DNA of 63,757 nucleotides, filler included. It is 5 parts of 5 records of this genome, joined end to end, with 100 filler letters (N's around TTAATTAATTAA, not from the genome) between each part and the next. Parts side by side here need not be neighbours in the genome. Positions count along the whole stretch, not along the records: positions 1 to 25,096 come from DRR723986_2434; 4 more parts are not named here. The stretch is one strand, 5' to 3'. Of the stretch, positions 7,541-37,311 are shown one piece after another (the first letter of the stretch is position 1; each line of letters opens with the position of its first letter). Position numbers and translations under genes: made by a program. Below the pieces are notes generated by a model. That model ran no database searches. It was not told where the DNA came from and saw nothing but the letters and a program-made list of their open reading frames with translations.

Positions 7541-8123
7541 TCAGCTCGTGCCGGCAGGCGGCCAGTCGCGCAGGGCTTCAATCAGCTGGACGGTGAGGCC
7601 ACCGGATACGATGCCCAGCGCGGCCCGCATGGCGTGCGTCCGGGAGATCGGCACAATGTAAGGCCTGGCTTCGCCGCCGGCCTTCCAGCTCTGGATCGTG
7701 CGCGCGAGACACTTCGCCCGGCGCCTGCAGAATTTCAGCGTCTCCAGCATCGCCTCCCAGCGGGCGATGAGGGATGCGGCAGGCACAGGTCCGCGCGTCG
7801 GCACAGTGATCGGCCCATGGAGGAAATCCGAAGGGCAGGACGGAGAAGAACGCCTTGCGCGCTTCCGCTTCGTCTTCGGTCTTTTCGAAATAGTTGCTAC
7901 CCGGCCGCGGCTTCACCGGCGCCAGCTCCACCTGCAGCGCCATCAGGAAAATCAGACGACGGAGCAGGACGGCCAGCCGCTTCAGCTCTGCTGACACCCG
8001 GCGTTTCAGAGTCTTCTGGATGAGCTCCGGCGCCTTGAACAGATCCGCATTCACGCCGGCTTCGGCCGCGGCGCGGGCAATCGTCTTAAAAGCGTTCGTG
8101 ATGAAATCGGTGAGGTCTGTCAT
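7541..8123 (-). pseudogene. Hypothetical protein split by an apparent frameshift near 7832
   Basis: MTDLTDFIT... from ATG 8123 has GC3-rich codons up to ...FSVLP (7833). GC3-rich codons then continue in the +1 frame (SDFLHGPITVPTRGPVP...DWPPAGTS*) to 7541. Confidence 0.6.
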
Positions 8124-8368
8124 GCCGGAAAGACTGGCACGAGTGCCTGTGCGGGGGATTGAGGGCCACCTCTGCCGCAAGAAAAGCACCTCTTTGCAAG
8201 AAGAGGTTACCGATCGGGCGTGGCCCGGGTGCAGGGGGCCAGGTGCGGATTTATCCTCCTGTCGGAGGAGCGATAACATCGGCGTGATCGGTTCATCCGG
8301 TGGTGGGGGCGGTTCGTAACAAGCGCACCGATCAAGCCGATCGGCCAGCAAGAAAAAGGGACAATGTA

Positions 8369-9145
8369 ATGCGACTTCATATGATTGCCGCCGCAACTGT
8401 GGCCGGCGCGCTTCTGGCTGCCCCTGGGCATGCCCAAGGCTTCTATGTGTCAGGAACTGTGGGAGCCGCAATGCAATCCGACAGTGACAATTCCGGCGCA
8501 ACCAGTGCCGACTTCCTGACGGGCAATGGCGGTGCGCTGCCTGCCGGTACCCCCATCGCTTCCGGCACGTCTGTCGGTTGGAAAACGGAATTTGACAACG
8601 GCATGTCCTACTCGGCTGCCGTCGGCTATCAGTACTCCCCGGCATTCCGGGCAGAAGTACAACTCGCCATGTCAAAGGCCGATGTTGATACGCACAAGAG
8701 CGTGACGCTCGGCGGCGGTTCCATCGATGCGCTCGATGCTGGCGCCCTCACAGGCTCTGCCGATACGCTGGGCGTGACAGTTTCTGACGTCGTGGCCGAC
8801 GGGCGCGGAGACATCAAGACCACCGCCCTGTTCCTCAACGGCTACTACGATTTCGCCAATGACTCCGGCTTTACGCCTTATGTCGGCGCAGGCATCGGTT
8901 ATGCGAAGACGGATGTGACCTTCAACCCGTCGGGCGTGGGCATCGTGGACGATGACGATAACGGATTTGCCTACCAGGTCATGGCCGGTGCGACCTACAG
9001 CTTCAATGAGCGCTGGGATGTATTCGGTCAGTACACCTATCGTTCGGTTGAGGACGGGAAGTACAAGGTTGATCTGTTCCCGGCGAACCTCGAAGTTGAG
9101 AACAAGGCGAACCTGATCGAAGTGGGCGTCCGCTACAAGTTCTGA
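8369..9145 (+). CDS. Outer-membrane beta-barrel protein (OmpA-like transmembrane/Opa-type)
   Basis: Signal peptide ending AHA-Q; strands NGYYDF, PYVGAGIGY, AYQVMAGATY; C-terminal beta-signal GVRYKF. Confidence 0.88.
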   Translation: MRLHMIAAATVAGALLAAPGHAQGFYVSGTVGAAMQSDSDNSGATSADFLTGNGGALPAGTPIASGTSVGWKTEFDNGMSYSAAVGYQYSPAFRAEVQLAMSKADVDTHKSVTLGGGSIDALDAGALTGSADTLGVTVSDVVADGRGDIKTTALFLNGYYDFANDSGFTPYVGAGIGYAKTDVTFNPSGVGIVDDDDNGFAYQVMAGATYSFNERWDVFGQYTYRSVEDGKYKVDLFPANLEVENKANLIEVGVRYKF

Positions 9146-9162
9146 TCAGTACTTTAAGAGAC

Positions 9163-9193
9163 GCCGCAGGCCCCTGATCGGCGGGCCTGCGGC
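9163..9193. terminator. GC-rich hairpin between convergent genes, likely shared terminator
   Basis: GCCGCAGGCCC...GGGCCTGCGGC inverted repeat between the stops at 9145 and 9208. Confidence 0.6.
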
Positions 9194-9207
9194 ATCGTCT
9201 TGTGATG

Positions 9208-10221
9208 TCATAGCCGGTAGCTGATACGTTCCCCAGCACGGCAGAAGGTATCGAGCTCCTGCAGGCAGAGCAGTTCCATATCACGCACGAGATCGAGCAG
9301 ATTGGTTTCGTCCGCATGGCTCGCAATCTGTTCGATATCGCGGACATATTGCTCAAAGCGGGTCTGTGACTGTTCCTCAATCGACGCATTGTCGAGAATG
9401 GATACGGTTGCACCCGCAATGAACAGGGTGACAGCCAGGAAATCGAGCCAACCGGATGTGGCGGAGCCGTCCAGTCCGGTGAACAATTTGGTCGACAGCG
9501 CAAAGAACGCAAACGCTGCGGCGCTGAGATAGATCATGTCCTGGGAAGAGTAGAAGATGCGCCGCCGGTTGGCGAAATGGGTCAGCTCGCTCTGGGCGAA
9601 CCGTTTCTGATACTGGATACGCAACTCGCCGTAGGCTTCCCTGGTGATCCGGGCGAGGTCCGCATTTGCAGGCTTTTTCGGTGTTCGGGGCAGGGACACG
9701 GCTGCGGCGGGCTGGAAGGCACGAAACACCGAATCCCCGCCGTTAAGCTCGTTTTCGATACTGGCAACCTGCCGCGCGGCAAACTGGTCCGACAGGATTT
9801 CGAGTTCTTTCGCGTCCTGCGCGATGTGACCAAGATGGTAGGCTTGGAATTTCGAACTTCGGAGCCGCTCGACGGCGTAGCGGTTGAGGAGCCACTTTTC
9901 CTTCTGGTGCGTCGTGATCAGGTAGATTTGCAGAACGATGCCAAGGCCAGCCAGCAGGGCGGCCAGGGCACTGGCCAATGGCTGTGCCGGATACGGAGGA
10001 ATGATGATCGCGTCGGCCACCGTATATATCGAGCTGAATGCGATCAGGACGATCGCCAGGCGCCCAAAGCGATGGTAGCGCCGCTTGGCGCGGACGGCCG
10101 CCGCTTCATGCTTGTTGAACGCCTCGTCTATTGCGGGGATCTGGAACAGGGTCTGGACCGGAGCGAACACTTCGGCTGTTGCACTGGTGGGGAAGACATC
10201 GCGATTGGCTATCTGCATCAT
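9208..10221 (-). CDS. Membrane protein with two tandem SLATT/DUF4231-like 2TM modules
   Basis: Module 1: AKRRYHRF-TM-TM-KWLLNRYAVERLRS..FQAY. Module 2: YGELRIQYQ-TM-TM-...RFEQY...LVRDMELLCLQELDTF. Both resemble SLATT patterns; recognised by eye. Confidence 0.65.
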   Translation of the reverse strand: MMQIANRDVFPTSATAEVFAPVQTLFQIPAIDEAFNKHEAAAVRAKRRYHRFGRLAIVLIAFSSIYTVADAIIIPPYPAQPLASALAALLAGLGIVLQIYLITTHQKEKWLLNRYAVERLRSSKFQAYHLGHIAQDAKELEILSDQFAARQVASIENELNGGDSVFRAFQPAAAVSLPRTPKKPANADLARITREAYGELRIQYQKRFAQSELTHFANRRRIFYSSQDMIYLSAAAFAFFALSTKLFTGLDGSATSGWLDFLAVTLFIAGATVSILDNASIEEQSQTRFEQYVRDIEQIASHADETNLLDLVRDMELLCLQELDTFCRAGERISYRL

Positions 10222-10286
10222 ACAATAAATTGTCCCAGAATATCACATGCACGCCCGGTGAGGCGTCGTCTGGCGAAATGTGGATG

Positions 10287-11804
10287 TCATTCGGCGGACA
10301 GGTCGCTGGTCACTATGCGGAAGCCGAAGACCTTGTCGCGCACGTTGCGGTCGATGCGGGCCCTGTTTGCGGCCCGGTGATCGTCCGGGTCGCGTCCCCA
10401 TGCGCCGCCCCGCAATACCCGACGTGCACAATCGCCGTCCCGTTGGGCCGAGCCATCTGTCGGCGCCGTCACATAGTTGTTGATGTAGCAGTCTTCGACC
10501 CACTCACGTGCATTTCCGAGCATGCCTTTCAGGCCGAACGGGTTTTCGGCCAGCGTATCGACCGGGACCGGAGCGCGGGAGGGGGCGATGGCGGCGTCGA
10601 AATAATCGCCCCACCAATAGGCCGTCGTGGTTCCGCCCCGGGCGGCGTATTCCCATTCCGCTTCGGTCGGCAGCCGGTAGGTCCGGCCTGTCTTGCTGCT
10701 GAGCCAGCGGGCATAGGCATTGGCATCGGACCAGGACACGCCAATGACTGGTTGCCGGCCTTTGCCATAGCCCCGGTCTGAGGGCTCGAAGCCATTGCAT
10801 CCGCCGCCGGCGACACACGCATCCCACTCGTCGAACGTGATCTCGGTCTGCCCGATCGCGAAACTGGGCAGCGTTACCTCATGCAGCGGGTCTTCATTGC
10901 CGGTCCGCCCCGCTTCCGTCGCGGGCGAGCCCATCTGGAAGCTGCCGGCCGGAATGGGGATCATTGCGGGGCACGTGTCGCAATCGGCAAAGGCTGCCAA
11001 CGGATCTTCGACCGGTTCTTCGACAGCGGGCGGCGGCTCCAGCTTCGGGCCCGACATCACCATCGCGGCAACGCCGCCTCCCAGCGCCAGGACGGCCAAG
11101 CCGATGCCGGCAGGGATAAGCCGGTTTGGCTTTGACGCAGGCGTCGGAGCAGGTTGAGGCGGTGAAGCGGGCGGCTGTGTGGCCGGCGCGGGGGCTTGTC
11201 CCGCTGAAGGGCTTGCGACCTTTGCCAGTCCGGCGAGCCGGTTGCGGGCGAGGTCCACAAAATGACCATCGGGATACCGGCTGAGATAGGCCTCGTAGTC
11301 GGCGGGATCTTCACTGTCAGCGATAGAGGTCCAAAAGGTGTTCTCTATGGTTGCATCCTGCGGCGCCACCGAAGGTTCGACTGCGGCAGGCGCGGCGTCT
11401 GTTTTCGCTTCCGAGCGCTCCAGCGCCAAGCGAATATCCGCCACGAAGCCCTTCCAGTGACTGTCTTCGCGGTCGCCATCCCAACCGATGAGGTCAGCGC
11501 TCTGGGTCAGTTCGAACATGATCGGACGTTCGGCATCCTGGATCATTGCGGGAATGACGGTCGAGGTACGTTCGCCCAATGTGGCTTCTGCCCGCACCCA
11601 TTTTGATTTCACGGAAACTTCCGACCAGAGCACAATGACCACGCGGGCATCCCGTAGCATGCCCTCTGTGACTTCGTCATAGGTCTGCCCCGCGCGGAGG
11701 ATCTTGTCCCACCAGACCGTAAAGCCTTCCTGCTCCAGAGCTTTGGCGATCTGTTGTGCCTTCGGCCTGTCCGCCCGGCTGTATGATAGGAAAATGTCTG
11801 CCAC
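10287..11804 (-). CDS. TIR_2 domain - helical motif - Pro linker - TM helix - FGE/sulfatase-modifying (C-type-lectin fold) domain protein
   Basis: TIR: DIFLSYSRADR...VWWD...VIVLWS..SVKSKWVRAE. TM: LIPAGIGLAVLALGGGVAAMVM. FGE: FQMGS, QPVIGVSWSDA, YRLPTEAEWEYAARGG, NPFGLKGMLGNAREW, RVLRGGAW, FGFRIV. Confidence 0.92.
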   Translation of the reverse strand: MADIFLSYSRADRPKAQQIAKALEQEGFTVWWDKILRAGQTYDEVTEGMLRDARVVIVLWSEVSVKSKWVRAEATLGERTSTVIPAMIQDAERPIMFELTQSADLIGWDGDREDSHWKGFVADIRLALERSEAKTDAAPAAVEPSVAPQDATIENTFWTSIADSEDPADYEAYLSRYPDGHFVDLARNRLAGLAKVASPSAGQAPAPATQPPASPPQPAPTPASKPNRLIPAGIGLAVLALGGGVAAMVMSGPKLEPPPAVEEPVEDPLAAFADCDTCPAMIPIPAGSFQMGSPATEAGRTGNEDPLHEVTLPSFAIGQTEITFDEWDACVAGGGCNGFEPSDRGYGKGRQPVIGVSWSDANAYARWLSSKTGRTYRLPTEAEWEYAARGGTTTAYWWGDYFDAAIAPSRAPVPVDTLAENPFGLKGMLGNAREWVEDCYINNYVTAPTDGSAQRDGDCARRVLRGGAWGRDPDDHRAANRARIDRNVRDKVFGFRIVTSDLSAE

Positions 11805-11996
11805 ACTCGTCCCCAGGGTGCTCTCTGACCGGCACCTCTCTTACGGGAACAATTAAGCCGTATTTTTAGTAACCAAGCAATGCACTTGTAAATACGGGGT
11901 TTTTCAATTGAAGGCGGAACAAGTTTTCTTGCGGCAGCGCTTGACGGGTAACTTGACGACGACGGACGATGCGGCGGCAATGACGGGGAGCCTCAC

Positions 11997-12986
11997 ATGC
12001 GTGCGATGGTGTTCGAGAAAGCCGGTGCGCCGCTGGTCCTGAAGGACGTGCCGGATCCTGTGCCGGGCGAAGGCGAGATCCGGATAAAAGTGACGGCCTG
12101 CGCCGTGTGCCGGACCGATCTGCATGTGGTCGATGGAGACCTGAAGAAGCCGAAGCTGCCGCTGATTCCGGGACATGAAATCATCGGTGTCGTCGATGCG
12201 TTGGGGCCGGGCGCGGCGGGCTTTGCCGTGGGTGACCGGGTCGGCGTGCCTTGGCTCGGGCACACCTGCGGGCGTTGCGTCTATTGCCAGCGCCAGCAGG
12301 AGAATCTGTGCGAGGCGGCGGAGTTTACCGGCTACACGCGCGATGGCGGTTTTGCCGAGTATGCGGTGGCCGACGCGCATTACTGCTTTCCGATCCCGGC
12401 TGCCTATTCGGACGAGGCCGCCGCGCCGCTGATGTGCGCGGGGCTGATCGGCTACCGTTCATACCGCATGGCGGGGGGCGGCAAGCGGCTCGGCCTCTAT
12501 GGTTTCGGCGCGGCGGCCCACATCATTGCGCAGGTGGCTGTGCATCAGGGGCGGGAGGTCTATGCCTTTACGAAGGCGGGCGACGAGAAAGGGCAGGATT
12601 TTGCCCGTTCGCTGGGCGCGGTCTGGGCCGGCAATAGTGAGGAGACGCCGCCGCACGTGCTGGATGCCGCGATCATCTTTGCTCCGGTCGGTGCGCTGGT
12701 CCCGGCCGCGTTGAAAGCCGTGGACAAGGGCGGCGCGGTGATTTGCGCCGGTATCCATATGAACGACATTCCCTCCTTTCCGTATACGGACCTATGGGAG
12801 GAGCGGCGCATCCAGTCCGTCGCGAACCTCACGCGGCAGGACGGGGTGGCGTTCCTGAAGATCGCGCCGGAAGCCATGGTGAAAACTTCAACGCACGCCT
12901 ATCCGCTGGAGCGCGCGAACGAGGCGCTGGACGATCTGCGCGCCGGGCGTTTCGAGGGCGCGGCGGTGCTCAGGATGGATCTTTGA
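11997..12986 (+). CDS. Zinc-dependent alcohol dehydrogenase (AdhP-like MDR family)
   Basis: VCRTDLH, GHE, structural Zn CGRCVYC...NLC, Rossmann GLYGFGAAA. Confidence 0.93.
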   Translation: MRAMVFEKAGAPLVLKDVPDPVPGEGEIRIKVTACAVCRTDLHVVDGDLKKPKLPLIPGHEIIGVVDALGPGAAGFAVGDRVGVPWLGHTCGRCVYCQRQQENLCEAAEFTGYTRDGGFAEYAVADAHYCFPIPAAYSDEAAAPLMCAGLIGYRSYRMAGGGKRLGLYGFGAAAHIIAQVAVHQGREVYAFTKAGDEKGQDFARSLGAVWAGNSEETPPHVLDAAIIFAPVGALVPAALKAVDKGGAVICAGIHMNDIPSFPYTDLWEERRIQSVANLTRQDGVAFLKIAPEAMVKTSTHAYPLERANEALDDLRAGRFEGAAVLRMDL

Positions 12987-24346: not shown

Positions 24347-24553
24347 TTTTACAAGGCTCTAGCTTTTTAGGGCTCGAATTTCGGCGCTAATGCATGGCCG
24401 CTCTGCAGTGAAATCGCATTATTTCTTGCGATTTGCTGCAGAAGGGGGTTGCGGGCACCCCGTGCCTTGAGTATCTCCCGGCCTCCGCTGAAGACGCCCT
24501 CGGGTTTCGGAAGCGGGCCCGCCAAAAAGGCTTCTGGGAAGTGCAAAAAGAGC

Positions 24554-24733
24554 TTGCAGCTCGGACCGAACAGAAGCTATATAGGCGGTTCCTCAAAACG
24601 CTCGGAAATAACGGGCCGGTCACCGGTCAGGGATTTCTTTTGCGCTAAAAATCTGGCGGTTCCACGGTTAAAACCGGAAACTGCAGAAGGCGCAAAAAAG
24701 GGTGTTGACGGGGAAAACGGCGGCCCATATAAG
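24554..24733 (+). promoter_or_regulatory. Tandem sigma70 rRNA operon promoters
   Basis: TTGACG(24705)-N17-TATAAG(24728) preceded by an A-tract. Upstream TTGCAG(24554)...TATATA(24578). BoxA-like GCTGTTTGACA near 24790. Confidence 0.7.
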
Positions 24734-25049
24734 CCGCCACTTCCGGACGGGGCCGCGGGCTTCTGAAGGGTTTCGGAACTCCGGTTCCAGCTGTTTGACA
24801 TCGTAAGAGATTAAGGAAGAGAAACGCAGGCGGCGTGATGGCTTGCGAACCTCGCCAGAGAGCAATCGACGGCAGGTTCATACGATCACGACGGATGCGT
24901 TTCTTGAGAGAAAATTCTTTTATCCATCGAATGGGTTTCGGCCCGTTCTTTGTGACAAAGGGTTTCTCGTCAAAAGAACGCAATACTTATGCTTAACAGC
25001 TTGAGTGACCGTCCATATTCCAATGGATGGTTTCGTCAGATCAACACTC

Positions 25050-25096
25050 AACTTGAGAGTTTGATTCTGGCTCAGAACGAACGCTGGCGGCAGGCC
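25050..25096 (+). rRNA. rrs: 16S rRNA 5' end (truncated by contig end)
   Basis: AACTTGAGAGTTTGATTCTGGCTCAGAACGAACGCTGGCGGCAGGCC, the alphaproteobacterial 16S start. Confidence 0.95.
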
Positions 25097-25196
25097 NNNN
25101 NNNNNNNNNNNNNNNNNNNNNNNNNNNNNNNNNNNNNNNNTTAATTAATTAANNNNNNNNNNNNNNNNNNNNNNNNNNNNNNNNNNNNNNNNNNNN
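25097..25196. other. Artificial contig linker
   Basis: 44 N + TTAATTAATTAA + 44 N; abrupt change from high-GC to low-GC sequence. Confidence 0.97.
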
Positions 25197-25220
25197 TATA
25201 GAAAGGATATAGGTTTTGAC

Positions 25221-25448
25221 TTATAGGTAAGAGTGTGCCGTAACACTTTTATCTTCCTCATTGTTAGAGTTGTACTTGGCTAATTGCATCATCCAATAAA
25301 CAAAGGCAACAAAACCGATAAGCATAAATATCCACGAAAGTGCGTTAGCAGCAAACCAATTATCTAGCTCTAATGATCTTAAGGCATCAAAGGGAGCAAA
25401 TAACACACCTACAAATAAATCCTCTATTCCGTAAAAGAAATCCTTCAT
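25221..25448 (-). CDS. Small membrane protein (Flavobacteriaceae DUF6341-like)
   Basis: 75 aa, one TM helix; TATTTTTG Bacteroidota -7 element upstream on the minus strand. Confidence 0.75.
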   Translation of the reverse strand: MKDFFYGIEDLFVGVLFAPFDALRSLELDNWFAANALSWIFMLIGFVAFVYWMMQLAKYNSNNEEDKSVTAHSYL

Positions 25449-25488
25449 AACTTTATAAATTTACAAAGCAAAAATACAAAAAGAGTTA

Positions 25489-26406
25489 ATGATTACAAGC
25501 ATTTTTAGTAAATCTAAACCTATAAACTTCATTCTGGTTGCTGTTTTTATAATTCTACTATTTGTAATATCCAGTTACTCAACCTTATTTATTGAGTTTA
25601 ATACTACAGTTGAGTCTTTTCTAAAGCTTTTTGTGACGCTATTTCTAGTGTTTGTTCTGGATTTTATAATTTCTAAAAACAATCTTACACAAAAAAATAG
25701 TTATGCAATTATGACATTTGGCTTGTTGTTTGGTATGTTCCCTGAAGCCTTAAAATATTCGGATTTGTTGTTTTCTAACTTGTTTGTTGTTTTTGCGATC
25801 AGACGATTAATTAGCATGCATTCAAAACTACATATCAAAAAGAAGTTATTTGATGCTGGTTTTTGGATTGCATTTGCAACCTTATTTTATTTCTGGTCTA
25901 TTCTGTTTTTTTCTTTGGTAATTGTAGCGCTCATTTATTACGCACAAAACGATATTAAAAACGCAATCATCCCAATAGTTGGGTTAGTTACAGTATTAGT
26001 ATTGTTGATTATTTATAATATTATTTTTTTTGATGCCTATATAAGGCCATCAAACTTTAGTAGAGAGGCAAGTGTAGTTTTTACCGCCTATAATACCAAT
26101 GAAAGTATTCTGAAGTTTACGGTTTTATTTACTTCTTTCGTTTGGACTTTAATTTATTATTTCAGGATTTTACCAGATAAGAGTAAAAAGTTAAGGCCTT
26201 CTTATTTTATTATTGCTTGGGCAGCCGTTATTGCTATACTAGTCGCAATTATTTCGCCAAGCAAAAATGGGAGTGAGTTTGTGTTCCTATTTGTTCCATT
26301 TTCAATAATAATGGCAAATTATATTGAAATTATATCAGAACGTTGGTTCAAAGAAGTTTTTGTGGCCTTATTTATTATTATTCCTATAGTAAGTCTAGTT
26401 CTGTAA
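25489..26406 (+). CDS. Polytopic membrane protein (DUF6427-like)
   Basis: 305 aa, highly hydrophobic; KKKLFDAGFW motif. Confidence 0.75.
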   Translation: MITSIFSKSKPINFILVAVFIILLFVISSYSTLFIEFNTTVESFLKLFVTLFLVFVLDFIISKNNLTQKNSYAIMTFGLLFGMFPEALKYSDLLFSNLFVVFAIRRLISMHSKLHIKKKLFDAGFWIAFATLFYFWSILFFSLVIVALIYYAQNDIKNAIIPIVGLVTVLVLLIIYNIIFFDAYIRPSNFSREASVVFTAYNTNESILKFTVLFTSFVWTLIYYFRILPDKSKKLRPSYFIIAWAAVIAILVAIISPSKNGSEFVFLFVPFSIIMANYIEIISERWFKEVFVALFIIIPIVSLVL

Positions 26407-27054
26407 TTTATTTCCAAATGCTAAATCGCCAGCATCACCCAAACCAGGAATAATATACCCTTTTTCATTTAAGGTTTTGTCCACAGTAGCAATCCATAAA
26501 TGAGTATCTGAATCAAAATTATTACAAACAAAATCAACACCAGTTTGAGCACCAATAACGCTCACTAAATGTATTTCTTTAGGCTTACCAAAAGGCTTTA
26601 AGGCTTCAAATGTAGCTACCATGGATTGTCCTGTTGCAAGCATAGGATCTGCAAGTATAAGCGTTTTGCCTTCTAAACTAGGACATGCCAAATATTCAAC
26701 AATTATTTCAAAACTTTCAGGATCATGTTTATGTTGTCTATACGCAGAAATAAAAGCATTCTCTGCTGCATCAAAATAATTTAAAAGACCATTATGTAAA
26801 GGAACACCTGCCCTTAAAATAGAACAAAGTACAATGTTATTATTGATTAAGTCAGTGTCAGAAAACCCTAAAGGTGTTTCGGTTTTATGAGCCTTAAAAT
26901 CTAATAATTTGCTCATTTCATATCCTAATATTTCACCAATGCGTTCAATATTGCGTCTAAAACGCATACTATCTTTTTGAATGGTTTTATCTCTAATTTC
27001 TGAAATAAATGTATTTAATATTGAAGGCGTATTTGAGAGATTATGAATATGCAT
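26395..27054 (-). CDS. upp: Uracil phosphoribosyltransferase
   Basis: SILRAG, DPMLATGQS PRPP loop, YIIPGLGDAGD. Confidence 0.95.
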   Translation of the reverse strand: MHIHNLSNTPSILNTFISEIRDKTIQKDSMRFRRNIERIGEILGYEMSKLLDFKAHKTETPLGFSDTDLINNNIVLCSILRAGVPLHNGLLNYFDAAENAFISAYRQHKHDPESFEIIVEYLACPSLEGKTLILADPMLATGQSMVATFEALKPFGKPKEIHLVSVIGAQTGVDFVCNNFDSDTHLWIATVDKTLNEKGYIIPGLGDAGDLAFGNKLQN

Positions 27055-27124
27055 ATATGCGTCTTTAGATGAATGGCTAAGTTAATAATTCAAACTATAT
27101 TTGCATATTCTAAATTTGTTCAAA

Positions 27125-27733
27125 ATGTTTTCAGACAAAGCCAACACCATATTTCAAGACGTAATTAAGACTTACAAGGTTTTAAATACAGTAGATCAAC
27201 CGTTTAATAATAAGCATGACAAGAATGATGACCTAATCGCACATTTACTATATAGAAAATGTTGGATTGACACAGTGCAATGGGCCTATGAAGACATTAT
27301 TAGAGACCCAAACATAGATCCTGTTGCTGCTTTAAAACTTAAACGCAAGATTGATGCATCTAACCAAGACAGAACAGATACTGTTGAATATATCGATAGT
27401 TACTTTCTTGAAAAACACAAGGATGTTGAGGTAAAGTCAGATGCAAAAATTAATTCTGAAAGTCCGGCTTGGGCAATTGACAGATTATCAATTTTGGCAC
27501 TAAAGATTTATCATATGCACCTAGAAACAGTCAGGGAAGACGCTTCAGATTCGCATAAAGATGCCTGCCAGAAAAAGCTTGATGTTCTTTTAGAGCAGCG
27601 AGGAGACCTAAGTGCTGCCATAGACGATTTGCTAAATGATATTGCAAATGGAGACAAGTATATGAAAGTTTATAAGCAAATGAAGATGTACAATGATGAT
27701 GAGTTAAACCCAGTATTGAGAGGGCAAAAATAA
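27125..27733 (+). CDS. DUF4254 family protein
   Basis: IDTVQW..EDIIRDP, KRKIDASNQDRTD, ESPAWAIDRLSILALK, YKQMKMYND. TATATTTG promoter element at 27096. Confidence 0.85.
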   Translation: MFSDKANTIFQDVIKTYKVLNTVDQPFNNKHDKNDDLIAHLLYRKCWIDTVQWAYEDIIRDPNIDPVAALKLKRKIDASNQDRTDTVEYIDSYFLEKHKDVEVKSDAKINSESPAWAIDRLSILALKIYHMHLETVREDASDSHKDACQKKLDVLLEQRGDLSAAIDDLLNDIANGDKYMKVYKQMKMYNDDELNPVLRGQK

Positions 27734-27777
27734 TTTATCATCCTGAACATGTTTCAGGATCTCACATTCTGAAATAA

Positions 27778-28800
27778 ATGTCAAACCCAAAACACATACT
27801 CGTAATTCGGTTTTCTGCAATGGGAGATGTCGCTATGACCGTTCCTGTATTGCGAGCATTAATAGAACAAAATTCTGATTTAAAAGTTACTGTAGTTACA
27901 CGCGCATTTTTTAAGCCATTTTTTCAAGATTTGGAAAATGTTGAGGTTTATGAAGCAGATTTAAAAGGAAAACACAAAGGGGTTTTAGGGCTTTATAAAC
28001 TTTCAAAAGAGTTAAAACAATTACAGTTTGATGCTATTGCAGATTTACATAATGTTTTACGCAGTAAAATTTTGAAGTTGTTCTTATTTGGCAAAAGAGT
28101 CGCGCAATTAGATAAAGGCAGAAATGAGAAGAAAGCTTTAATCTCTGGTAAAATTTTTCAGCAACTTAAGACCACACATCAACGTTACGCAGATGTATTT
28201 AAAAAACTCGGCTATCTTGTTGATTTATATCAACCTAAATTTCCTGTAAAGAAAAATTTATCTTCAGAATTAGAACAGTTCGTTACAAATTCCAATTATA
28301 AAACTATTGGTATTGCACCTTTTGCTGCGCATAAGAGTAAAATGTATCCCTTAGATAAAATGGAACGTATTATTGAAGCGCTTTCAGAAAGTAGCAATAT
28401 TGTTCTATTTGGAGGCGGTAAGAAAGAGATAGAAATACTAAATACTTTTGACAACAATTTCAACAATGTAGTTTCTGTTGCTGGTAAATTAAAATTAGAA
28501 GAAGAACTATCCCTGATATCTAATTTAGACCTTATGTTATCAATGGATTCTGGTAATGCACATTTAGCGGCAATGCTAGGTATAAAGGTAATTACAATTT
28601 GGGGAGTTACTCATCCATATACTGGTTTTGCTCCATTTAATCAACCTTTTGATAATGCATTAGTGGCAGACAGAGAAACTTACCCTTTAATTCCTACTTC
28701 TGTTTATGGGAATAATTTCCCAGAGGGTTATGAAAATGCAGCAGGAAGCATTGCTGTAAGTGAAATTGTTTCAAAAGTTAAGTCAGTCATTAAAGTTTAG
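27778..28800 (+). CDS. Glycosyltransferase family 9 (heptosyltransferase-like)
   Basis: RFSAMGDVA, DLH, SMDSGNAHLAA, TIWGVTHP. Confidence 0.92.
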   Translation: MSNPKHILVIRFSAMGDVAMTVPVLRALIEQNSDLKVTVVTRAFFKPFFQDLENVEVYEADLKGKHKGVLGLYKLSKELKQLQFDAIADLHNVLRSKILKLFLFGKRVAQLDKGRNEKKALISGKIFQQLKTTHQRYADVFKKLGYLVDLYQPKFPVKKNLSSELEQFVTNSNYKTIGIAPFAAHKSKMYPLDKMERIIEALSESSNIVLFGGGKKEIEILNTFDNNFNNVVSVAGKLKLEEELSLISNLDLMLSMDSGNAHLAAMLGIKVITIWGVTHPYTGFAPFNQPFDNALVADRETYPLIPTSVYGNNFPEGYENAAGSIAVSEIVSKVKSVIKV

Positions 28801-28845
28801 ACTGTCTTAGTAATTCTCACTACTTAAAAATAAAACCAATATAGA

Positions 28846-29901
28846 TTACACGTCATCATAGTCAACTACAATGGTTGATGATGTTGGGTGTGCTTGACAA
28901 GTCAATACTAATCCTTCTGCTACTTCATTATCAGTAAGTATGTTGTTTTGACGCATAGATACTTCACCTTCTGTAATTCTTGCAATACAGCTACTACATA
29001 TTCCGCCTTGGCAAGAATAAGGAGCGTCTATATCTTGTTTTAATGTAGCTTCGAGTATAGATTGCTCTTTAGACATTTCAAATTCAAAATCTTCATCATC
29101 TACGAGTACTTTAATTTTAGTATGACCACTTGGGACTTCTAAATTAGAAGCTTCAACCGCAACAGGTGCCATAAATAATTCAAATAGAATATTTTTTTCT
29201 TTTATATTATTTTCAACTAAGACATCCTTTACTGTATGAATCATTTGTTCTGGTCCACAGAGATAATATTTTTCAATAGTAACTTCTTTATATTTATTCT
29301 TTACTATGAGATTTACCGTACTTTTTTCAATACGACCAAATAAAGCATCTTCTTCTCTAGATTGACTGTAAATAAAATGTATGTGTAAACGATTACCATA
29401 GGTGTTTTTTAACGCCATTAGGTCATTAAAGAACATGGTATCATCAACAGTCTTATTCCCATAAACCAAAATAAAATTACTAAACGGTTCCTCTTCCAAA
29501 AGGGTTTTTGCAATACTTAAAATGGGTGTAATACCACTACCAGCGGCAAATGCAGCTATAGTTCTGGTTTTAGCCTCATTAGCCTCAAATACAAAGCGAC
29601 CATTAGGTTCAGCGACCTCGATAGTGTCTCCGGCATTTAGTTCTTTATTGGCATAAACAGAAAAAGTCCCACCTTCTACAGCCTTTACTCCAACGGTTAA
29701 CTCTCCGCTGCCTTTAGAAGAGCAAATAGAGTAATCTCGTCGTACTTCCTCACCATTAATATTAGTTTTTAAAGTTATATACTGGCCTGCATTAAAAGCA
29801 AAAGCACTTTTTAAATGATCAGGAATGTCAAAAGTAAGAGCAACAGATTGCTTAGTTATCTGTTCTATTGATTTTATATTTAGAGTGTGGAATTGTGCCA
29901 T
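28846..29901 (-). CDS. FAD/NAD oxidoreductase with C-terminal 2Fe-2S ferredoxin (PaaE-like)
   Basis: RDYSICS, AAGSGITP, YLCGP, CQGGICSSC...LTC. Confidence 0.9.
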   Translation of the reverse strand: MAQFHTLNIKSIEQITKQSVALTFDIPDHLKSAFAFNAGQYITLKTNINGEEVRRDYSICSSKGSGELTVGVKAVEGGTFSVYANKELNAGDTIEVAEPNGRFVFEANEAKTRTIAAFAAGSGITPILSIAKTLLEEEPFSNFILVYGNKTVDDTMFFNDLMALKNTYGNRLHIHFIYSQSREEDALFGRIEKSTVNLIVKNKYKEVTIEKYYLCGPEQMIHTVKDVLVENNIKEKNILFELFMAPVAVEASNLEVPSGHTKIKVLVDDEDFEFEMSKEQSILEATLKQDIDAPYSCQGGICSSCIARITEGEVSMRQNNILTDNEVAEGLVLTCQAHPTSSTIVVDYDDV

Positions 29902-30007
29902 TACAATAATTTTTATGCAAAAATAAGGAAGCGTAGATATAAACTTATCTTTGTTTGTAACAAATTAACAATTAAGTTTACTGATAGAAAAAACTAACCA
30001 AAACGCT

Positions 30008-31486
30008 ATGATAAAGCATTTTATTAATTTAGAATGGAAGCAATATTTTCGTTCATCTTATTGGCAGAAAAACTTAGCATTAAACATTCTCATGGTGTTT
30101 TTTGCACTGTATTTTATAGTTGTATTTTTAGCCTTAGGGTTTGGACTATTGCCAATACTTAAAAAGGTTTTTCCAGATCAAGACCCATTTGTTGTAGCCA
30201 ACGGCTTTTTATTTTTCTGGATAATGGTAGATTTAATGATGCGATTCTTTTTGCAAAAACTACCAGTAATGAGTGTAAAGCCTTTATTAGTGTTACCTAT
30301 TAAGCGTTCTACAGTTGTCCATTATGTTCTTGGGAAATCTGCACTGTCATTTTTTAATTTTTTACCCTTATTTGCAATTGTACCTTTTAGCATAATGCTA
30401 ATTGCAAATGACTATGAAACACCAATGGTAATGACATGGATGTTTACCATGATTATTCTAGTTTTAATCATCAACTTCCTAAATTTTATTGTCGAAGCTT
30501 TATCCGCTGAAACAGAGATGTCTTTTCTACCCTTAATAATTATGGTTGGTACCTTATATGGACTAGACTATTTTAATATATTACCAATTAAATCAGCTTT
30601 AGGAGACGCTTTAATAGCTGTGGCTAACAATCCTATTTTAATACTTGTTCCAATTGCTATTTTATTTTTGTGTTATTGGTATAATTACAAAATTCTTAGA
30701 GAAAAACTCTTTTTGGACAGTTCTTTAAAGTCCAAAGTAACCGAAGTGAGGGCGGCGGATTTATCCTGGACTAAGCGTTTTGGTGATATTGCACCTTTTA
30801 TGCAATTGGATCTTAAACTTATTTGGAGAAATAAGCGCACAAAATCCTCGGTTTTTATTATGGTGATTGGCTTATTGTATGGGTTGTTTTTCTATCCGCA
30901 ACCAATGTATAGGGATATGGTATGGTTATTTCCGTTTATAGGAATTTTTGTAACAGGTATTTTCCTAATAAATTTTGGCCAATTTATTCCGGCTTGGGAC
31001 AGTGGTTATTACAAAATGCTTATGAGTCAGAATATTAAATACGAACAGTATCTGCGTTCTAAATTTATTTTAATGGTTCTTAGTGTAGGTATTATGTTTG
31101 TTCTTAGTATTCCATATGTATATTTTGGCTGGAAAATATTAGTAGCACATTTTGCTGCAGCCATTTATAATATTGGAGTTAACTCCCATGTAATGCTTTA
31201 TGGAGGCTCGTTCAACAGAAAAAAAATTGATCTAAATCAGCGCGCCGCATTTAATTATCAAGGAACAGGAGCTGTACAGTGGATTATCGGGTTACCGTTA
31301 ATGCTATTGCCTATGCTAATATTTGCAATTTTGAACTGGTTGGTTGGTTTTGAAGTTGGTATAGCGGTGCTCATATTAATGGGTATAGCAGGTATTGCAC
31401 TTCATAAAAAACTAATGAAGATGATCACAAAACGATACTTAAATTCAAAATATAAAATGATTGACGCCTTTAGTCAAGATAATTAA
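30008..31486 (+). CDS. ABC transporter permease (DUF5687 family)
   Basis: About 12 TM helices, DLKLIWRNKR motif, directly upstream of an ABC ATPase. TATCTTTG at 29946. Confidence 0.8.
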   Translation: MIKHFINLEWKQYFRSSYWQKNLALNILMVFFALYFIVVFLALGFGLLPILKKVFPDQDPFVVANGFLFFWIMVDLMMRFFLQKLPVMSVKPLLVLPIKRSTVVHYVLGKSALSFFNFLPLFAIVPFSIMLIANDYETPMVMTWMFTMIILVLIINFLNFIVEALSAETEMSFLPLIIMVGTLYGLDYFNILPIKSALGDALIAVANNPILILVPIAILFLCYWYNYKILREKLFLDSSLKSKVTEVRAADLSWTKRFGDIAPFMQLDLKLIWRNKRTKSSVFIMVIGLLYGLFFYPQPMYRDMVWLFPFIGIFVTGIFLINFGQFIPAWDSGYYKMLMSQNIKYEQYLRSKFILMVLSVGIMFVLSIPYVYFGWKILVAHFAAAIYNIGVNSHVMLYGGSFNRKKIDLNQRAAFNYQGTGAVQWIIGLPLMLLPMLIFAILNWLVGFEVGIAVLILMGIAGIALHKKLMKMITKRYLNSKYKMIDAFSQDN

Positions 31487-31500
31487 TAATAGAACACATC

Positions 31501-32223
31501 ATGATATATACAAAAGACATTTCAAAAGCATATAACGGAACAACTGTTCTAAAAGTAGACGAATTAAGTATTCCTAAAGGTCAAAGTTTTGGATTAGTTG
31601 GAAATAATGGTGCTGGTAAAACCACTTACTTTAGTTTGCTACTAGATCTTATAAAACCAACAACAGGTAATATTACAAACAATAGTGTTGTTGTTGATGA
31701 GAGCGAAGATTGGAAACCATTTACATCATCATTTATTGACGAAAGCTTTTTAATTGGGTATTTAACTCCTGAAGAGTATTTTTATTTTATTGGTGACTTA
31801 AGAGGTCAAAATAAAGCAGATGTCGATGCACTAACATCTAAATTTGAAGATTTCTTCAATGGGGAAATTGTTGGTAAAAAGAAATACTTAAGAGACTTAA
31901 GTAAGGGTAACCAAAAGAAAGCAGGTATTGTGGCAGCACTTATTGGTAATCCAGATGTAATTATATTAGATGAACCATTTGCAAACCTAGATCCAACCAC
32001 ACAAATTCGCCTAAAACAGATACTAAAAGATTTAGCAGAAAAACAAGGTGTAACCATTTTAATTTCTAGTCATGATTTAATGCATGTTACTGACGTTTGT
32101 GAACGCATTGTTGTTTTAGAAAAAGGGGAAGTTGTTAAAGATTTAGAGACAAATCCGGCTACGCTAAAAGAATTAGAAGCGTATTTTTCTAGTAACATGG
32201 TAGCGTCTCAAGAAGAGGAATAA
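31501..32223 (+). CDS. ABC transporter ATP-binding protein
   Basis: GNNGAGKT, LSKGNQKK, ILDEPFANLD, SSHDL. Confidence 0.93.
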   Translation: MIYTKDISKAYNGTTVLKVDELSIPKGQSFGLVGNNGAGKTTYFSLLLDLIKPTTGNITNNSVVVDESEDWKPFTSSFIDESFLIGYLTPEEYFYFIGDLRGQNKADVDALTSKFEDFFNGEIVGKKKYLRDLSKGNQKKAGIVAALIGNPDVIILDEPFANLDPTTQIRLKQILKDLAEKQGVTILISSHDLMHVTDVCERIVVLEKGEVVKDLETNPATLKELEAYFSSNMVASQEEE

Positions 32224-32249
32224 ACACTTAATTTCGATAAATTTAGTCT

Positions 32250-32279
32250 AACCCACAATAAATTTTTATTGTGGGTTTT
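32250..32279 (+). terminator. Intrinsic terminator
   Basis: AACCCACAATAAA-TT-TTTATTGTGGGTT-TT. Confidence 0.7.
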
Positions 32280-32412
32280 CCATTTTACGAGAGTTCTATG
32301 TTCCCGAAAAACCTTCAAATTAAGCCTAAAATTCAAAAAGATGTTTATTTTTACCACTTAACACACTAAATACGTTAGAATTTAGTTATCTATTAATCAA
32401 ATAGAACCAACG

Positions 32413-35022
32413 TTGAAGACCCATTTCAAGATTATATTATCTCTTTTTTGTGTCGTGCTATTTACCCAAAGCTGCTCGCGTAAAAAAAACACGTTTATTA
32501 ACCGCAACTTTCATGCTTTAGGCACCAAATACAACATATTATACAACGGCAACATAGCATTAGAAAGAGGTAAAGAATCGGTTAATAATCAATATACCGA
32601 GAACTTTTGGGAGTTGCTACCTATAGAACGAATGGATGTTAAGGATGATGTATTTCTTCCTGGACAAACTAAGAATGAAGATTTTGAGCGTGCTGAAGAA
32701 AAAGCCATTAAAGCTATTCAACTTCATGGGATGAATATTGATGGTAAAGAAAAAAATCCGCAAATAGACGAAGCTTACTTGTTGCTAGGGAAAGCAAGAT
32801 ATTTTGATCAACGTTTTGTGCCAGCATTGGCAGCATTCAATAATATTCTAAACAAATATCCAACCAGTGATAAAATTAATCAGGTTAAGATTTGGAGAGA
32901 AAAAGCGGATATGCGTTTAGAAAATAATGAGATTGCTATTAAAAAGCTTAAGCGTCTAATGCGCGAAGAGCTTTTAGAAGACCAAGATCTTGCAGACGCC
33001 AAAGCAACTTTAGCGCAGGCTTATATAAATATTGAAGCTAAAGATAGCGCTATGGCAGAATTAGCCACCGCAGCAGAGCATACTAAAATAAAAAGTGAAA
33101 AAGCGCGATATCATTTTATAAGAGGACAATTGTTTAATGAGTTTGGCAAAAAGGATAGTGCTAATTTAGAATTTGATGCAATTATAGATATGCATCGTCA
33201 AATACCACGTGCGTTTTATATCAATGCACATCTTCAAAAATCATATAATTTTGATGCCGAAAATGGTAATTTAGAAGAGTTTACAGAATACCTAACAGAC
33301 CTAGAAGAAAACAGAGAAAACCGTCCTTATTTAGATAAAATATATTATCGTATAGCAGAGTTTCATCGTGAAAGTGCTTCAGATAGCCTATCTGAAGTGT
33401 ATTACAATAAGTCACTCACTAAGAGTAAAGGAGACAATTACCTCACAGCTTTAAATTATGAGACACTAGGTAATATGTACTTTGATCGCAACATTTACAG
33501 AACTGCTGGGCAATATTATGATAGTACCATGACTGCAATGGTTGAGAATTCTAAGCCTTATCGTATCATAAAAAAGAAGAGAGAAAATTTAGATGATGTC
33601 ATATATTACGAAGGGATAGCTCAAGCCAATGACAGCATTCTTAGAATAGTTAGTTTGCCTAAAGAAGAACAGTTGGTGATTTATACTGAGTTCGCAGAGC
33701 AACTTAAGGCTAAAGCATTAGAGGAGGAGGAGAAGAGAAAAGAGATTTTAGAGAAAAGAAAGAATAAGTCCACTTCAGATAAAGCAAATAGTAAATTTGA
33801 TAAGGGTAATGCAAAAATTGGAAGAAATCCAAACCCTCTTTCAATAGGAAATTCTAATAAACGAAGCAGTAGTAGTTTTTACTTTTATAATCCATCGACT
33901 GTTGCATACGGAAAGAATGAATTCATTAAGATTTGGGGAGAAAGAAAACTTCAAGACAATTGGAGGTTATATAAACAATTGGTGACAGCACAAAACACAA
34001 CAAAAAAGGAAGTTGTTAAATCTAAAAAGAAAGAAGAACGTTTCAATCCAGAATTTTATTTAGCACAATTACCAACAGAGCAAAAAGAAATTGATAGTAT
34101 TTTTAGAGAGCGCAACTATGCATATTACCAATTAGGAATAATCTATAAAGAAAAATTTAAAGAGTTTGTACTAGCTAAAAATAAATTAGAAACATTATTA
34201 GATAACAACCCAGAAGACCGTTTAGTGCTGCCTTCTAAATATAATTTATTACGTATTTATGAAGAGCTAGGATTAAACCGAAAGGCTGAGTTGGTAAAGG
34301 CAGATATAATTAAGAATTATCCAGATTCAAGATATGCTGAAATTTTATTAAATCCTCAATCTGAATTGGCTAAGGACGAGAATAGTCCAGAATCAATTTA
34401 CACTAAACTGTATGAACAATTTAATAATCAAGAATACGCGGCAGTTATAGAAGGTGCTGAAGCTCAAATAAAAAGATTAGAAGGCGATCCAATTGTTCCG
34501 AAGTTTGAGATTTTAAAAGCGTCAGCGCGAGGTAGGCTCTATGGATTTGAAGCTTACAAAGAAGGTATAAATTATATAGCGCTAACTTATGCGAATACTG
34601 AAGAAGGTAAAAAAGCGCAGCAGTTAATGAAAGATGCTATACCAGCATTGGCTAAAAATGAGTTTCTACCAGATGACAAAGCCCAATATTTTAATGTTAT
34701 TTATAAATTTGAAAATAATTCAGGTGAAGACATTGAAGCATTTATGAAGATTCTAGATGAAGAGGTTGCGAAGGTAAAATACTTTGAATTAACCACATCT
34801 AGAGATGTCTATGATGAAAACACTACCTTTGTAGTAGTGCATGGATTAAAAAGTATTGTTGGAGCAAGTGGTTTTGCACAGCTCTTACGAACTGATGAAA
34901 AAGATAAGAGAGGTAGGCCTGTAAAACCAAAAATAACAAAGCCTTACTTTGCTATTTCGTCTCCAAATTATGCTATTATCCAACGACATAAAAATTTAAG
35001 CGCGTACTTAAAGTTACAATAA
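32413..35022 (+). CDS. sprE: Type IX secretion/gliding TPR lipoprotein SprE/PorW
   Basis: Lipobox TQS-C followed by SRKKNTFINRNFH...YNILYNG; TPRs; FYFYN...WGERKLQDNWR. Sits upstream of bactofilin and the atp operon. Confidence 0.85.
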   Translation: MKTHFKIILSLFCVVLFTQSCSRKKNTFINRNFHALGTKYNILYNGNIALERGKESVNNQYTENFWELLPIERMDVKDDVFLPGQTKNEDFERAEEKAIKAIQLHGMNIDGKEKNPQIDEAYLLLGKARYFDQRFVPALAAFNNILNKYPTSDKINQVKIWREKADMRLENNEIAIKKLKRLMREELLEDQDLADAKATLAQAYINIEAKDSAMAELATAAEHTKIKSEKARYHFIRGQLFNEFGKKDSANLEFDAIIDMHRQIPRAFYINAHLQKSYNFDAENGNLEEFTEYLTDLEENRENRPYLDKIYYRIAEFHRESASDSLSEVYYNKSLTKSKGDNYLTALNYETLGNMYFDRNIYRTAGQYYDSTMTAMVENSKPYRIIKKKRENLDDVIYYEGIAQANDSILRIVSLPKEEQLVIYTEFAEQLKAKALEEEEKRKEILEKRKNKSTSDKANSKFDKGNAKIGRNPNPLSIGNSNKRSSSSFYFYNPSTVAYGKNEFIKIWGERKLQDNWRLYKQLVTAQNTTKKEVVKSKKKEERFNPEFYLAQLPTEQKEIDSIFRERNYAYYQLGIIYKEKFKEFVLAKNKLETLLDNNPEDRLVLPSKYNLLRIYEELGLNRKAELVKADIIKNYPDSRYAEILLNPQSELAKDENSPESIYTKLYEQFNNQEYAAVIEGAEAQIKRLEGDPIVPKFEILKASARGRLYGFEAYKEGINYIALTYANTEEGKKAQQLMKDAIPALAKNEFLPDDKAQYFNVIYKFENNSGEDIEAFMKILDEEVAKVKYFELTTSRDVYDENTTFVVVHGLKSIVGASGFAQLLRTDEKDKRGRPVKPKITKPYFAISSPNYAIIQRHKNLSAYLKLQ

Positions 35023-35034
35023 AAAACAGTAATC

Positions 35035-35472
35035 ATGTTTTCCTCAGACAATAAAAAAACCAAGTTAAATATGGAAACTTCGACATCGCAGAATATTATA
35101 GCTCAAGGAACAAAAATAGTTGGAGATATTGTAAGCCAAGGCCCTTTTAGAATAGATGGAACCATAGACGGCAACCTTAAAACCACTGGTAAAGTTGTAG
35201 TTGGTAAATCGGGCATTATTAAAGGAACACTTCAAGGGGAAAATGCTGATTTTGAAGGTAAGTTCTCAGGTAAATTAATTCTTTCAGGCACATTGTCATT
35301 AAAAGCAACTGCACATATAGAAGGTGAAGTTCAGGTAAGTAAATTAGCAGTAGAGCCTGGCGCTACTTTTAATGCGACTTGTAGTATGAAGGGAGCGGTA
35401 AAAGCATTATCTAATGAGCCAATCAAATCACAACAAACTTCCCAAACCCAAAGATCAGAAAGACAGGCTTAA
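35035..35472 (+). CDS. Bactofilin (polymer-forming cytoskeletal protein)
   Basis: IIAQGTKIVGD...FRIDG...VVVGKSG.IKG...LAVEPGATFNA beta-helix. Confidence 0.9.
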   Translation: MFSSDNKKTKLNMETSTSQNIIAQGTKIVGDIVSQGPFRIDGTIDGNLKTTGKVVVGKSGIIKGTLQGENADFEGKFSGKLILSGTLSLKATAHIEGEVQVSKLAVEPGATFNATCSMKGAVKALSNEPIKSQQTSQTQRSERQA

Positions 35473-35671
35473 TTCATATGCTCGTTTTTCAGGTATTGCT
35501 ATTCAAATGTTTGCAATTATTGGCATTGGCACCTATGCAGGTGTTAAATTAGATGCGCATTATCCAAATAAGTATAACTTATATACATTAATATTGTCAT
35601 TATCGTCTGTTATTTTATCAATTGTTTTTGTGATAAGGCGTATTATTGCAGCATCAAAAGACAATTCTTAA
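35414..35671 (+). CDS. AtpZ/AtpI family protein
   Basis: YARFSGIAIQM...GVKLD, two TM helices, upstream of atpB. Confidence 0.8.
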   Translation: MSQSNHNKLPKPKDQKDRLNSYARFSGIAIQMFAIIGIGTYAGVKLDAHYPNKYNLYTLILSLSSVILSIVFVIRRIIAASKDNS

Positions 35672-35678
35672 AACAAAA

Positions 35679-36074
35679 ATGGAAGAGTTTAAAAAGAGAC
35701 AGGTTGTTTTTCTGCTTCAATTAATTGGTGTTAGTGCGGTTTTATTTGCTATTCACAGCTATTTATTATATCATTTTGCTAGTGAAAGGGTTTTCTTTTT
35801 CCCTATCTGGCAGATCTATACTTTCCATTTGATAATCACCTTGTTGCTTTTTACTATTATTAATTACAGATATTCTTCAGGAAAAAAAGACATCTTTAAT
35901 TTGTTTATGGCTATGACCATTATAAAGATGGTCCTGGCTATTTTATTCTTATTACCTTTAATACTGTCTGATTTTAAGAATAAGCAACCAGATGTATTCA
36001 ATTTTTTTATTCCTTATTTCTTGTATTTATTTTTTGAGGTTTTTGCACTTACAAAATTTCTTCAAAAGCCCTGA
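35679..36074 (+). CDS. 4-TM membrane protein upstream of atpB (DUF6168/AtpI-like)
   Basis: Hydrophobic; FMAMTIIKM and FFIPYFLYLFFEV motifs. Confidence 0.75.
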   Translation: MEEFKKRQVVFLLQLIGVSAVLFAIHSYLLYHFASERVFFFPIWQIYTFHLIITLLLFTIINYRYSSGKKDIFNLFMAMTIIKMVLAILFLLPLILSDFKNKQPDVFNFFIPYFLYLFFEVFALTKFLQKP

Positions 36075-36152
36075 GCAATAAATTTTAAAACTCTCTATAA
36101 ATCAAAGGTTTTTATCGATAAAAGACCATAAAAAATTATAGCAAAATTATTG

Positions 36153-37307: not shown

Positions 37308-37311
37308 TTAA

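Follow-up and report, generated by a model that had tools for sequence, protein, structure and literature searches.

Two co-oriented genes lying 65 bp apart raise the question of whether a receptor-like TIR protein and a SLATT-like membrane protein work together as one signalling system, and what such a system would be for. The genes lie in a stretch of 63,757 nucleotides, filler included (hereafter the window), built from 5 parts of 5 records filed under one genome and joined end to end, with positions 1 to 25,096 coming from DRR723986_2434. An earlier note on this DNA, made from its letters, had proposed a candidate two-gene signalling or defence system in which a periplasmic sensor clusters a cytoplasmic TIR domain that then activates a pore-like SLATT effector. 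Both open reading frames (ORFs) were recovered on the minus strand as proposed (gene 1 and gene 2, Table 1). With modest confidence we favour the reading that they form a receptor-type TIR-SLATT signalling module, operating like type VII Thoeris but sensing outside the cytoplasm.

Gene 1, a receptor-like TIR protein

Gene 1 reads as a TIR_2 domain followed by a linker module, a Pro/Ala-rich spacer, a hydrophobic stretch (residues 229-250) and an FGE-sulfatase domain. It has 1007 homologues at E<=1e-60, and among the 120 listed nearly all combine TIR_2 with FGE; residue conservation was assessed on an alignment of 72 homologues picked from these 120. W69 and E73 of the WVRAE motif were invariant in all 72 and line up with the W and E of AbTIR and BtTIR, the nearest solved TIR structures and both NADases, in agreement with the catalytic Glu that the earlier note had pointed out. 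For AbTIR, it is reported that E208 is essential for catalysis and W204 required for ADP-ribose (ADPR) cyclisation, and that the W204 position does not reveal which cyclic product forms (bioRxiv 10.1101/2022.05.07.491051), so that the signal made by gene 1 is not predictable from it. Having kept the conserved Glu, the gene 1 TIR domain looks catalytically competent. Its score against the ThsB_TIR model was 15.5 bits (cut-off 21.2), and PADLOC ThsB models matched it at E 3e-4 or weaker.

Basic residues K225 and R228 precede the hydrophobic stretch L229-M250, which we assigned as a putative transmembrane (TM) helix by eye; a hydrophobic segment is found at the equivalent position in 6 of 6 homologues and in 10 of 11 partner TIR proteins. 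The nearest solved structure to the outer domain is PvdO (5hha), both by sequence (E 1e-37) and by fold (E 5e-24), with a score of 171.5 bits against the PvdO NCBIfam equivalog model (cut-off 500). The domain lacks the catalytic Cys pair of the formylglycine-generating enzyme (FGE) (copper-binding, after the RGGS motif), which the earlier note had read correctly: R471 stands at the first Cys position and no Cys occurs past residue 459. Identity as an FGE enzyme was rejected because the catalytic cysteines are missing, and the name carried by gene 1 homologues in databases, 'SUMF1/EgtB/PvdO nonheme iron enzyme', is probably a misannotation. Six other cysteines (275, 278, 330, 336, 439 and 459) were invariant in the aligned homologues and probably form disulfides, which would fit a periplasmic location. 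Conservation among homologues was far higher in the TIR domain than in the outer one, the pattern that a varying sensor coupled to a fixed output should give. No reverse transcriptase was found among the scanned window ORFs, so the outer domain is not a diversity-generating target at this locus.

Gene 2, a SLATT-like membrane protein

The N-terminal half of gene 2 matched DUF4231 with 32.8 bits (cut-off 24.7) and SLATT_1, SLATT_3 and SLATT_4 below their respective cut-offs. The C-terminal half, searched alone, matched no SLATT family, and hhalign of the two halves gave a weak probability of 10.8%. Of the tandem SLATT architecture proposed at the outset, the first module thus stood and the second found no direct library match. 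The nearest Atlas clusters (0.96) hold proteins of the same size with DUF4231 and SLATT_1 on 30-83% of their members, and a second SLATT module is likely. The structural model is all-helical with two hydrophobic hairpins (pLDDT, the predicted local distance difference test, 86.5); structure searches with it yielded no Foldseek match at E<=0.001 and, in a second comparison, only generic helical hairpins at Z<=8.7, which is no proof of a new fold. As regards the translation start, gene 2 homologues begin at the second Met.

A profile built for gene 2 retrieved 612 representatives at E<=0.001. Across 124 homologues, of which 101 matched SLATT_1 at E<=0.01, the conserved residues were K46, G53, W110, R114, E118 and R121 in module 1 and R201, Q205, R288, E316, E322 and F326 in module 2, with R121, R201, E316 and F326 invariant. 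Charged and aromatic residues outside the hydrophobic helices are kept down to about 20% identity in this family, which suggests a ligand site.

Pairing of TIR and SLATT genes

Searches with gene 2 yielded homologues in 94 of 251 Hyphomonadaceae genomes, with a single copy in 92 of the 94 and a total of 96 rows (25 from the close lineage and 71 from the longer lineage), and none in a sample of 400 other Alphaproteobacteria. Adjacency was cross-tabulated by hand from coordinates, in genomes that are related and not independent samples. At least 52 of the 96 SLATT rows adjoin a TIR gene (43 TIR-FGE and 9 other TIR), so homologues of the two genes do co-occur, a point on which the earlier note had left its proposal to depend. 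This count leaves out a weak TIR match in G007, and 23 SLATT rows were unchecked for non-FGE TIR genes. Chance adjacency is about 1% per gene (hand estimate from 225 TIR matches in 84 Mb). The association between the two families is non-random and exceeds chance.

Every kind of relative orientation occurs: of the 43 TIR-FGE neighbours, 36 are divergent, 5 follow the order seen in the window and 2 have it reversed, one of these two being truncated where its contig ends. The 9 non-FGE neighbours encode TIR-TM-TolB-like-TPR, TIR-TM-WD40 or TIR-TM proteins with an unknown domain ('TolB-like' being the label that we presume to apply to the domain after the helix in the TIR-TM-TPR partners), giving at least four kinds of outer domain (FGE, TolB-like/TPR, WD40 and unknown). 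The TIR-TM-WD40 and SLATT genes of G200 overlap by 4 bp, and in G001 and G204 the TIR gene beside SLATT is the sole TIR_2 match of the genome. All 11 TIR partners that were aligned, which are of several architectures, keep the catalytic Glu (E73).

Partners are also exchanged between lineages. TIR-FGE proteins with 51-58% identity to gene 1 are the partners of SLATT proteins that share only 17-21% identity with gene 2. Genes closely related to gene 2 mostly have a different receptor as partner, or none, and one genome (G154) has both SLATT-receptor combinations. The proposed two-gene system did not hold up in a fixed form: several types of TIR receptor partner the effector, which is often found with no TIR gene beside it. 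Such swappable partners and free orientation fit a diffusible NAD-derived signal better than a fixed protein interface.

At the level of whole genomes, the TIR-TM-FGE profile matched in 77 of 94 SLATT-positive versus 21 of 157 SLATT-negative genomes, a contrast inflated by incompleteness and kinship, and the median number of TIR matches per genome was 9 in 25 SLATT-positive versus 2 in 28 SLATT-negative genomes. A scan of species genomes found a TIR gene within 8 kb at 12 of 15 loci, five of these overlapping the Hyphomonadaceae set. Annotation of 14 of the longer loci out of 80 distant metagenomic ones identified 5 with a TIR neighbour, 3 with a STAND NTPase and no detected TIR, and 1 with a large FGE protein. 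Some distant relatives of gene 2 adjoin defence genes (STAND NTPases, SIR2-TIR, a type I restriction subunit). A search of viral contigs, made with alignment A5 only, found nothing related to the distant SLATT group.

Further observations were made on the surveyed genomes and loci. TIR_2 repertoires can be very large for bacteria, with 34 matches in G009, 28 in G088, 23 in G024 and 20 each in G106 and G164. At nine loci (L003, L004, L005, L006, L007, L008, L009, L013 and L054) the SLATT and TIR-TPR genes are joined, in no constant order, by a trypsin gene, which mostly has the form trypsin-WD40-trypsin. A potassium-channel-type gene (Ion_trans) lies 3' of SLATT and co-oriented with it at L083:8131-8919 and L094:8145-8939, TIR-FGE being divergent in both. 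All 5 aligned TIR-TM-TPR partners (L003, L004, L005, L015 and L054) have an internal (S/T)RR motif immediately ahead of their membrane helix (around residues 150-175), absent from gene 1, which we take to resemble a twin-arginine export signal. At L071:6974-8095 the ORF of a distant SLATT homologue ends after 251 aa and is apparently broken, with nSTAND1 and TPR genes upstream.

Proposed mechanism and alternatives

What the sequences show is the set of domains, the conservation of the catalytic residues and a genomic pairing that recurs; from these we infer the following steps. Gene 1 would be an inner-membrane protein with its TIR domain inside and its lectin-fold domain in the periplasm, where the receptors would be clustered by a ligand, such as an ejection or tail protein of a phage, a protein from a predator or a secretion system, or a piece of the envelope. 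Clustered TIR domains would convert NAD+ to a cyclic ADPR isomer, and the four-helix SLATT protein would bind this signal through conserved Arg, Trp and Glu residues of its cytoplasmic helices, then oligomerise and depolarise or permeabilise the membrane, leading to growth arrest or death. Various TIR receptors would address the SLATT protein as a shared effector, in cis or in trans. The most likely purpose is of an immune type, with phage specifically taking perhaps half of that likelihood.

More tentatively, the pair may belong to a Toll-like immune network of the Hyphomonadaceae, in which many single-pass TIR receptors with exchangeable periplasmic sensors (lectin-fold, TPR, WD40) would detect envelope attackers before foreign DNA is expressed, and a single-copy SLATT effector would read one NAD-derived signal wherever its gene sits. 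The window would then hold a minimal version of this network, with one receptor and one effector; we advance the network as a whole as a possibility. If the pair works by the steps set out for the module, it would offer a two-gene system whose trigger can be bypassed, either by supplying cADPR isomers or through artificial clustering of the TIR domain, giving a direct view of SLATT gating, and a clue to the role of the many TIR-TM-sensor genes in Hyphomonadaceae.

Several results weigh against a receptor-type TIR-SLATT module or qualify it. The AlphaFold model has pLDDT <50 over residues 202-245 and does not show the TM stretch as a helix; the single helix of the earlier note stands as a hydrophobic stretch and not in the model, and the topology is the one read from the sequence. 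The surroundings are of a housekeeping kind, with no defence or mobile-element genes near the pair among the scanned window ORFs, and a check against PADLOC, suggested earlier for the pair, returned no system model fitting gene 2 better than E 0.0075. No TIR neighbour was found for 20 of the checked SLATT rows (14 of the 25 close-lineage rows and 6 from the longer lineage); the 14 close-lineage genomes all have TIR genes elsewhere (5-18), so that the effector could be activated in trans. A single inherited arrangement may account for the 36 divergent pairs, the genomes being related, and 5 of the 14 distant metagenomic loci have no immune-type neighbour. Finally, SLATT-negative genomes can be rich in TIR genes (17 and 28 matches in 2 of the 28), which implies that receptors do not need this effector; the idea that every TIR-rich genome has this SLATT was rejected on account of these genomes.

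The same receptor, signal and channel logic could serve a non-lethal purpose: stalked bacteria may use it to sense surfaces, glycans or envelope stress, and the SLATT protein would then be an ion channel gated by the signal, or an exporter of it. Housekeeping neighbourhoods, the single stable copy in positive genomes, the ion-channel gene 3' of SLATT in L083 and L094, TIR repertoires of up to 34 per genome and the absence from the other Alphaproteobacteria sampled, unlike widely traded defence cassettes, all agree with it. We nevertheless regard this reading as unlikely, considering the gain or loss of the cassette among close relatives, the STAND NTPase, SIR2-TIR and type I restriction subunit genes that adjoin distant relatives, and the reported origin of the tested SLATT proteins in defence systems.

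More doubtful still is that the TIR receptor is itself the effector, draining NAD+ upon clustering. The SLATT protein would then be a co-factor or regulator in the membrane, working through direct contact and without any small molecule. That AbTIR and BtTIR are NADases, and that many TIR receptors or TIR-FGE genes occur without SLATT (including the 21 SLATT-negative genomes with the TIR-TM-FGE profile), would suit this reading, but very different SLATT lineages and receptor types interchange, which speaks against one fixed interface, and the Trp linked to cyclisation (W69) is invariant. The absence of any functional link, with an arrangement merely inherited by related genomes in a family where TIR genes are numerous, is very improbable: it would explain the 20 rows without a TIR neighbour and draws on the non-independence of the genomes, but paired genes are seen repeatedly, in all orientations, with four types of outer domain and in two deep SLATT lineages, the two genes overlap in G200, and both are missing together in G010 and G153. 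The receptor-type TIR-SLATT module remains our preferred reading.

Locus, chromosomal site and window

Table 1. Features of the gene pair and its immediate surroundings, in window positions
Feature	Position	Strand	Basis
Gene 1: TIR-linker-TM-FGE/CLec receptor-like protein, 505 aa, GTG start	10287..11804	-	ORF call and Pfam
Gene 1, TIR_2 domain, residues 4-110	11475..11795	-	Pfam, E 1e-20
Gene 1, W69	11598-11600	-	Alignment to AbTIR W204
Gene 1, predicted catalytic E73	11586-11588	-	Alignment to AbTIR E208
Gene 1, putative three-helix cytoplasmic linker module, residues 149-197	11214..11360	-	No Pfam match; missing in homologue L055
Gene 1, putative single TM helix, L229-M250	11055..11120	-	Read from sequence; basic residues on TIR side
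Gene 1, FGE-sulfatase/C-type-lectin-fold domain, residues 278-498	10311..10973	-	Pfam, E 1e-54
Intergenic gap, 65 bp	10222..10286	.	
Gene 2: four-helix membrane protein, DUF4231/SLATT superfamily, 337 aa	9208..10221	-	ORF call and Pfam
Gene 2, module 1: DUF4231/SLATT-like two-helix hairpin, residues 41-126	9844..10101	-	Pfam, above cut-off
Gene 2, module 2: second two-helix hairpin, residues 187-330, probably SLATT_1-like	9232..9663	-	SLATT_1-like by inference
Strong GC-rich hairpin, located between gene 2 and the convergent gene for an outer-membrane protein	9156..9201	.	Folding versus shuffles
AT-rich stretch 5' of gene 1, probable promoter region	11845..11930	.	GC profile
Accessory cassette, approximate extent	9146..11940	.	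Comparison with empty sites in relatives

The locus is close to that of Hyphomonas sp. CY54-11-8, with the same gene order and 98% (gene 2) and 94% (gene 1) identity. The gap between the paired genes is shorter in relatives (9 bp in L001 and 12 bp in L011), and a promoter search in the window gap gave one weak promoter-like match at 10246-10217, at chance level. The hairpin and AT-rich region described in the earlier note were both recovered. The former folds at -35.2 kcal/mol (z -6.2, equalled by 0 of 200 shuffles) and is a probable terminator; it has no T run, and the terminator scan gave no flag there. The latter falls in a bin (11501-12000) with a GC content of 0.55 versus about 0.62 in surrounding bins; no sigma-70 consensus was found 5' of gene 1. 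In a search for RNA evidence, 13 runs contained small shares, and contigs from 4 runs (related strains) cover parts of both genes, one spanning the gap; such contigs are no proof of transcription or of an operon, and they may include DNA.

The flanking genes encode PBP1A, release factor 2, an outer-membrane beta-barrel protein, an alcohol dehydrogenase and PhoH. The spacing between the barrel and dehydrogenase genes is 2.8 kb in the window versus only about 70-90 bp in the close relatives G010 and G153, and profile searches found neither gene 1 nor gene 2 in either genome, so the two genes were gained or lost jointly at this site. At the same site of L149 (G092), the cassette and the alcohol dehydrogenase gene are both gone, indicating a variable spot. 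Neither terminal repeats nor a target-site duplication were found around the cassette, and a mobile-element reading was left unsupported by the lack of terminal repeats, integrase or GC anomaly.

Elsewhere, around 24500-40000, the window looks composite: GC content stays near 0.60 as far as 24 kb, is about 0.33 between 26 and 38 kb and 0.51-0.60 thereafter. The low-GC part holds DUF6427, DUF4254 and DUF5687 genes, which we take to be of Bacteroidota type, and an ATP synthase operon that breaks off within the alpha subunit (198 aa); the window probably joins contigs of different organisms. On the minus strand at 7541-8100, a hypothetical gene without a Pfam match seems to be divided between two frames, as ORFs 7578-8675 and 7541-7804, perhaps through a frameshift or an error in the sequence.

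Comparison with known systems

Type VII Thoeris comprises a ThsB TIR protein and a ThsH SLATT protein; according to its description, canonical cyclic ADPR (cADPR) is made upon infection, cADPR added to the medium halts growth, and PF13676 TIR clusters were also accepted (bioRxiv 10.64898/2025.12.03.692087). The window shares with it a TIR gene beside a SLATT-domain membrane gene and a proposed signal-gated, membrane-breaching effector. It differs in that the TIR domain, a TIR_2 under the ThsB_TIR cut-off, is fused to a TM helix and a lectin-fold domain, that the effector has four helices and that orientation is free; the defence-island enrichment used in that study has no counterpart in the window or at the Hyphomonadaceae loci, whose neighbours are housekeeping genes. 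The pair resembles type VII Thoeris in outline and is at most a possible member of it. The main text of the preprint nowhere uses 'periplasm', 'lectin' or 'DUF4231', and a literature search, mostly without subscription journals, found no account of a transmembrane TIR-lectin receptor with a SLATT effector, though the supplementary tables on type VII Thoeris may list the clade. The claim that this is not a named system must therefore be narrowed: TIR with SLATT already bears a name and has been tested as a system, and the new part is the Toll-like receptor with its probably periplasmic sensor. The Thoeris systems compared consist of a TIR protein and an effector, and none was found described, in the texts available, with the TIR as a transmembrane receptor with a periplasmic sensor.

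As regards SLATT conflict systems, the Pfam entry describes SLATT_3 fused to SLATT_1 and linked to TIR or SLOG genes, the TIRs being inactive, and Burroughs et al. are said to have described conflict systems with SLATT pore effectors in 2015. The layout of the window matches such a SLATT_3-SLATT_1 fusion linked to TIR or SLOG genes; in contrast, the gene 2 family falls under the SLATT_1 and SLATT_3 cut-offs, and the TIR partner looks catalytically intact and receptor-like. SLATT, which occurs alongside TIR-type nucleotide domains, has been predicted to act as a pore effector responding to nucleotides, and FGS domains are described as variable C-type-lectin-fold domains placed C-terminally in conflict proteins (Kaur et al. 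2020, PMC7159879); SLATT also occurs in DRT10 (10.64898/2026.04.29.721553). The outer domain of gene 1 shares its fold with PvdO (5hha), TvpA (2y3c) and the formylglycine-generating enzyme, but differs from the latter in having no catalytic cysteines.

Animal Toll-like receptors have an outer sensor with leucine-rich repeats, one membrane helix and a cytoplasmic TIR domain. Gene 1 would likewise place a sensor outside, a single helix in the membrane and a TIR domain in the cytoplasm, but in reversed order (N-terminal TIR), with a lectin-fold sensor and probably with an enzymatic output. The likeness is thus one of analogy, with homology claimed for the TIR domain only; if the pair works as we infer, it would represent a Toll-like, outside-in immune receptor in bacteria.

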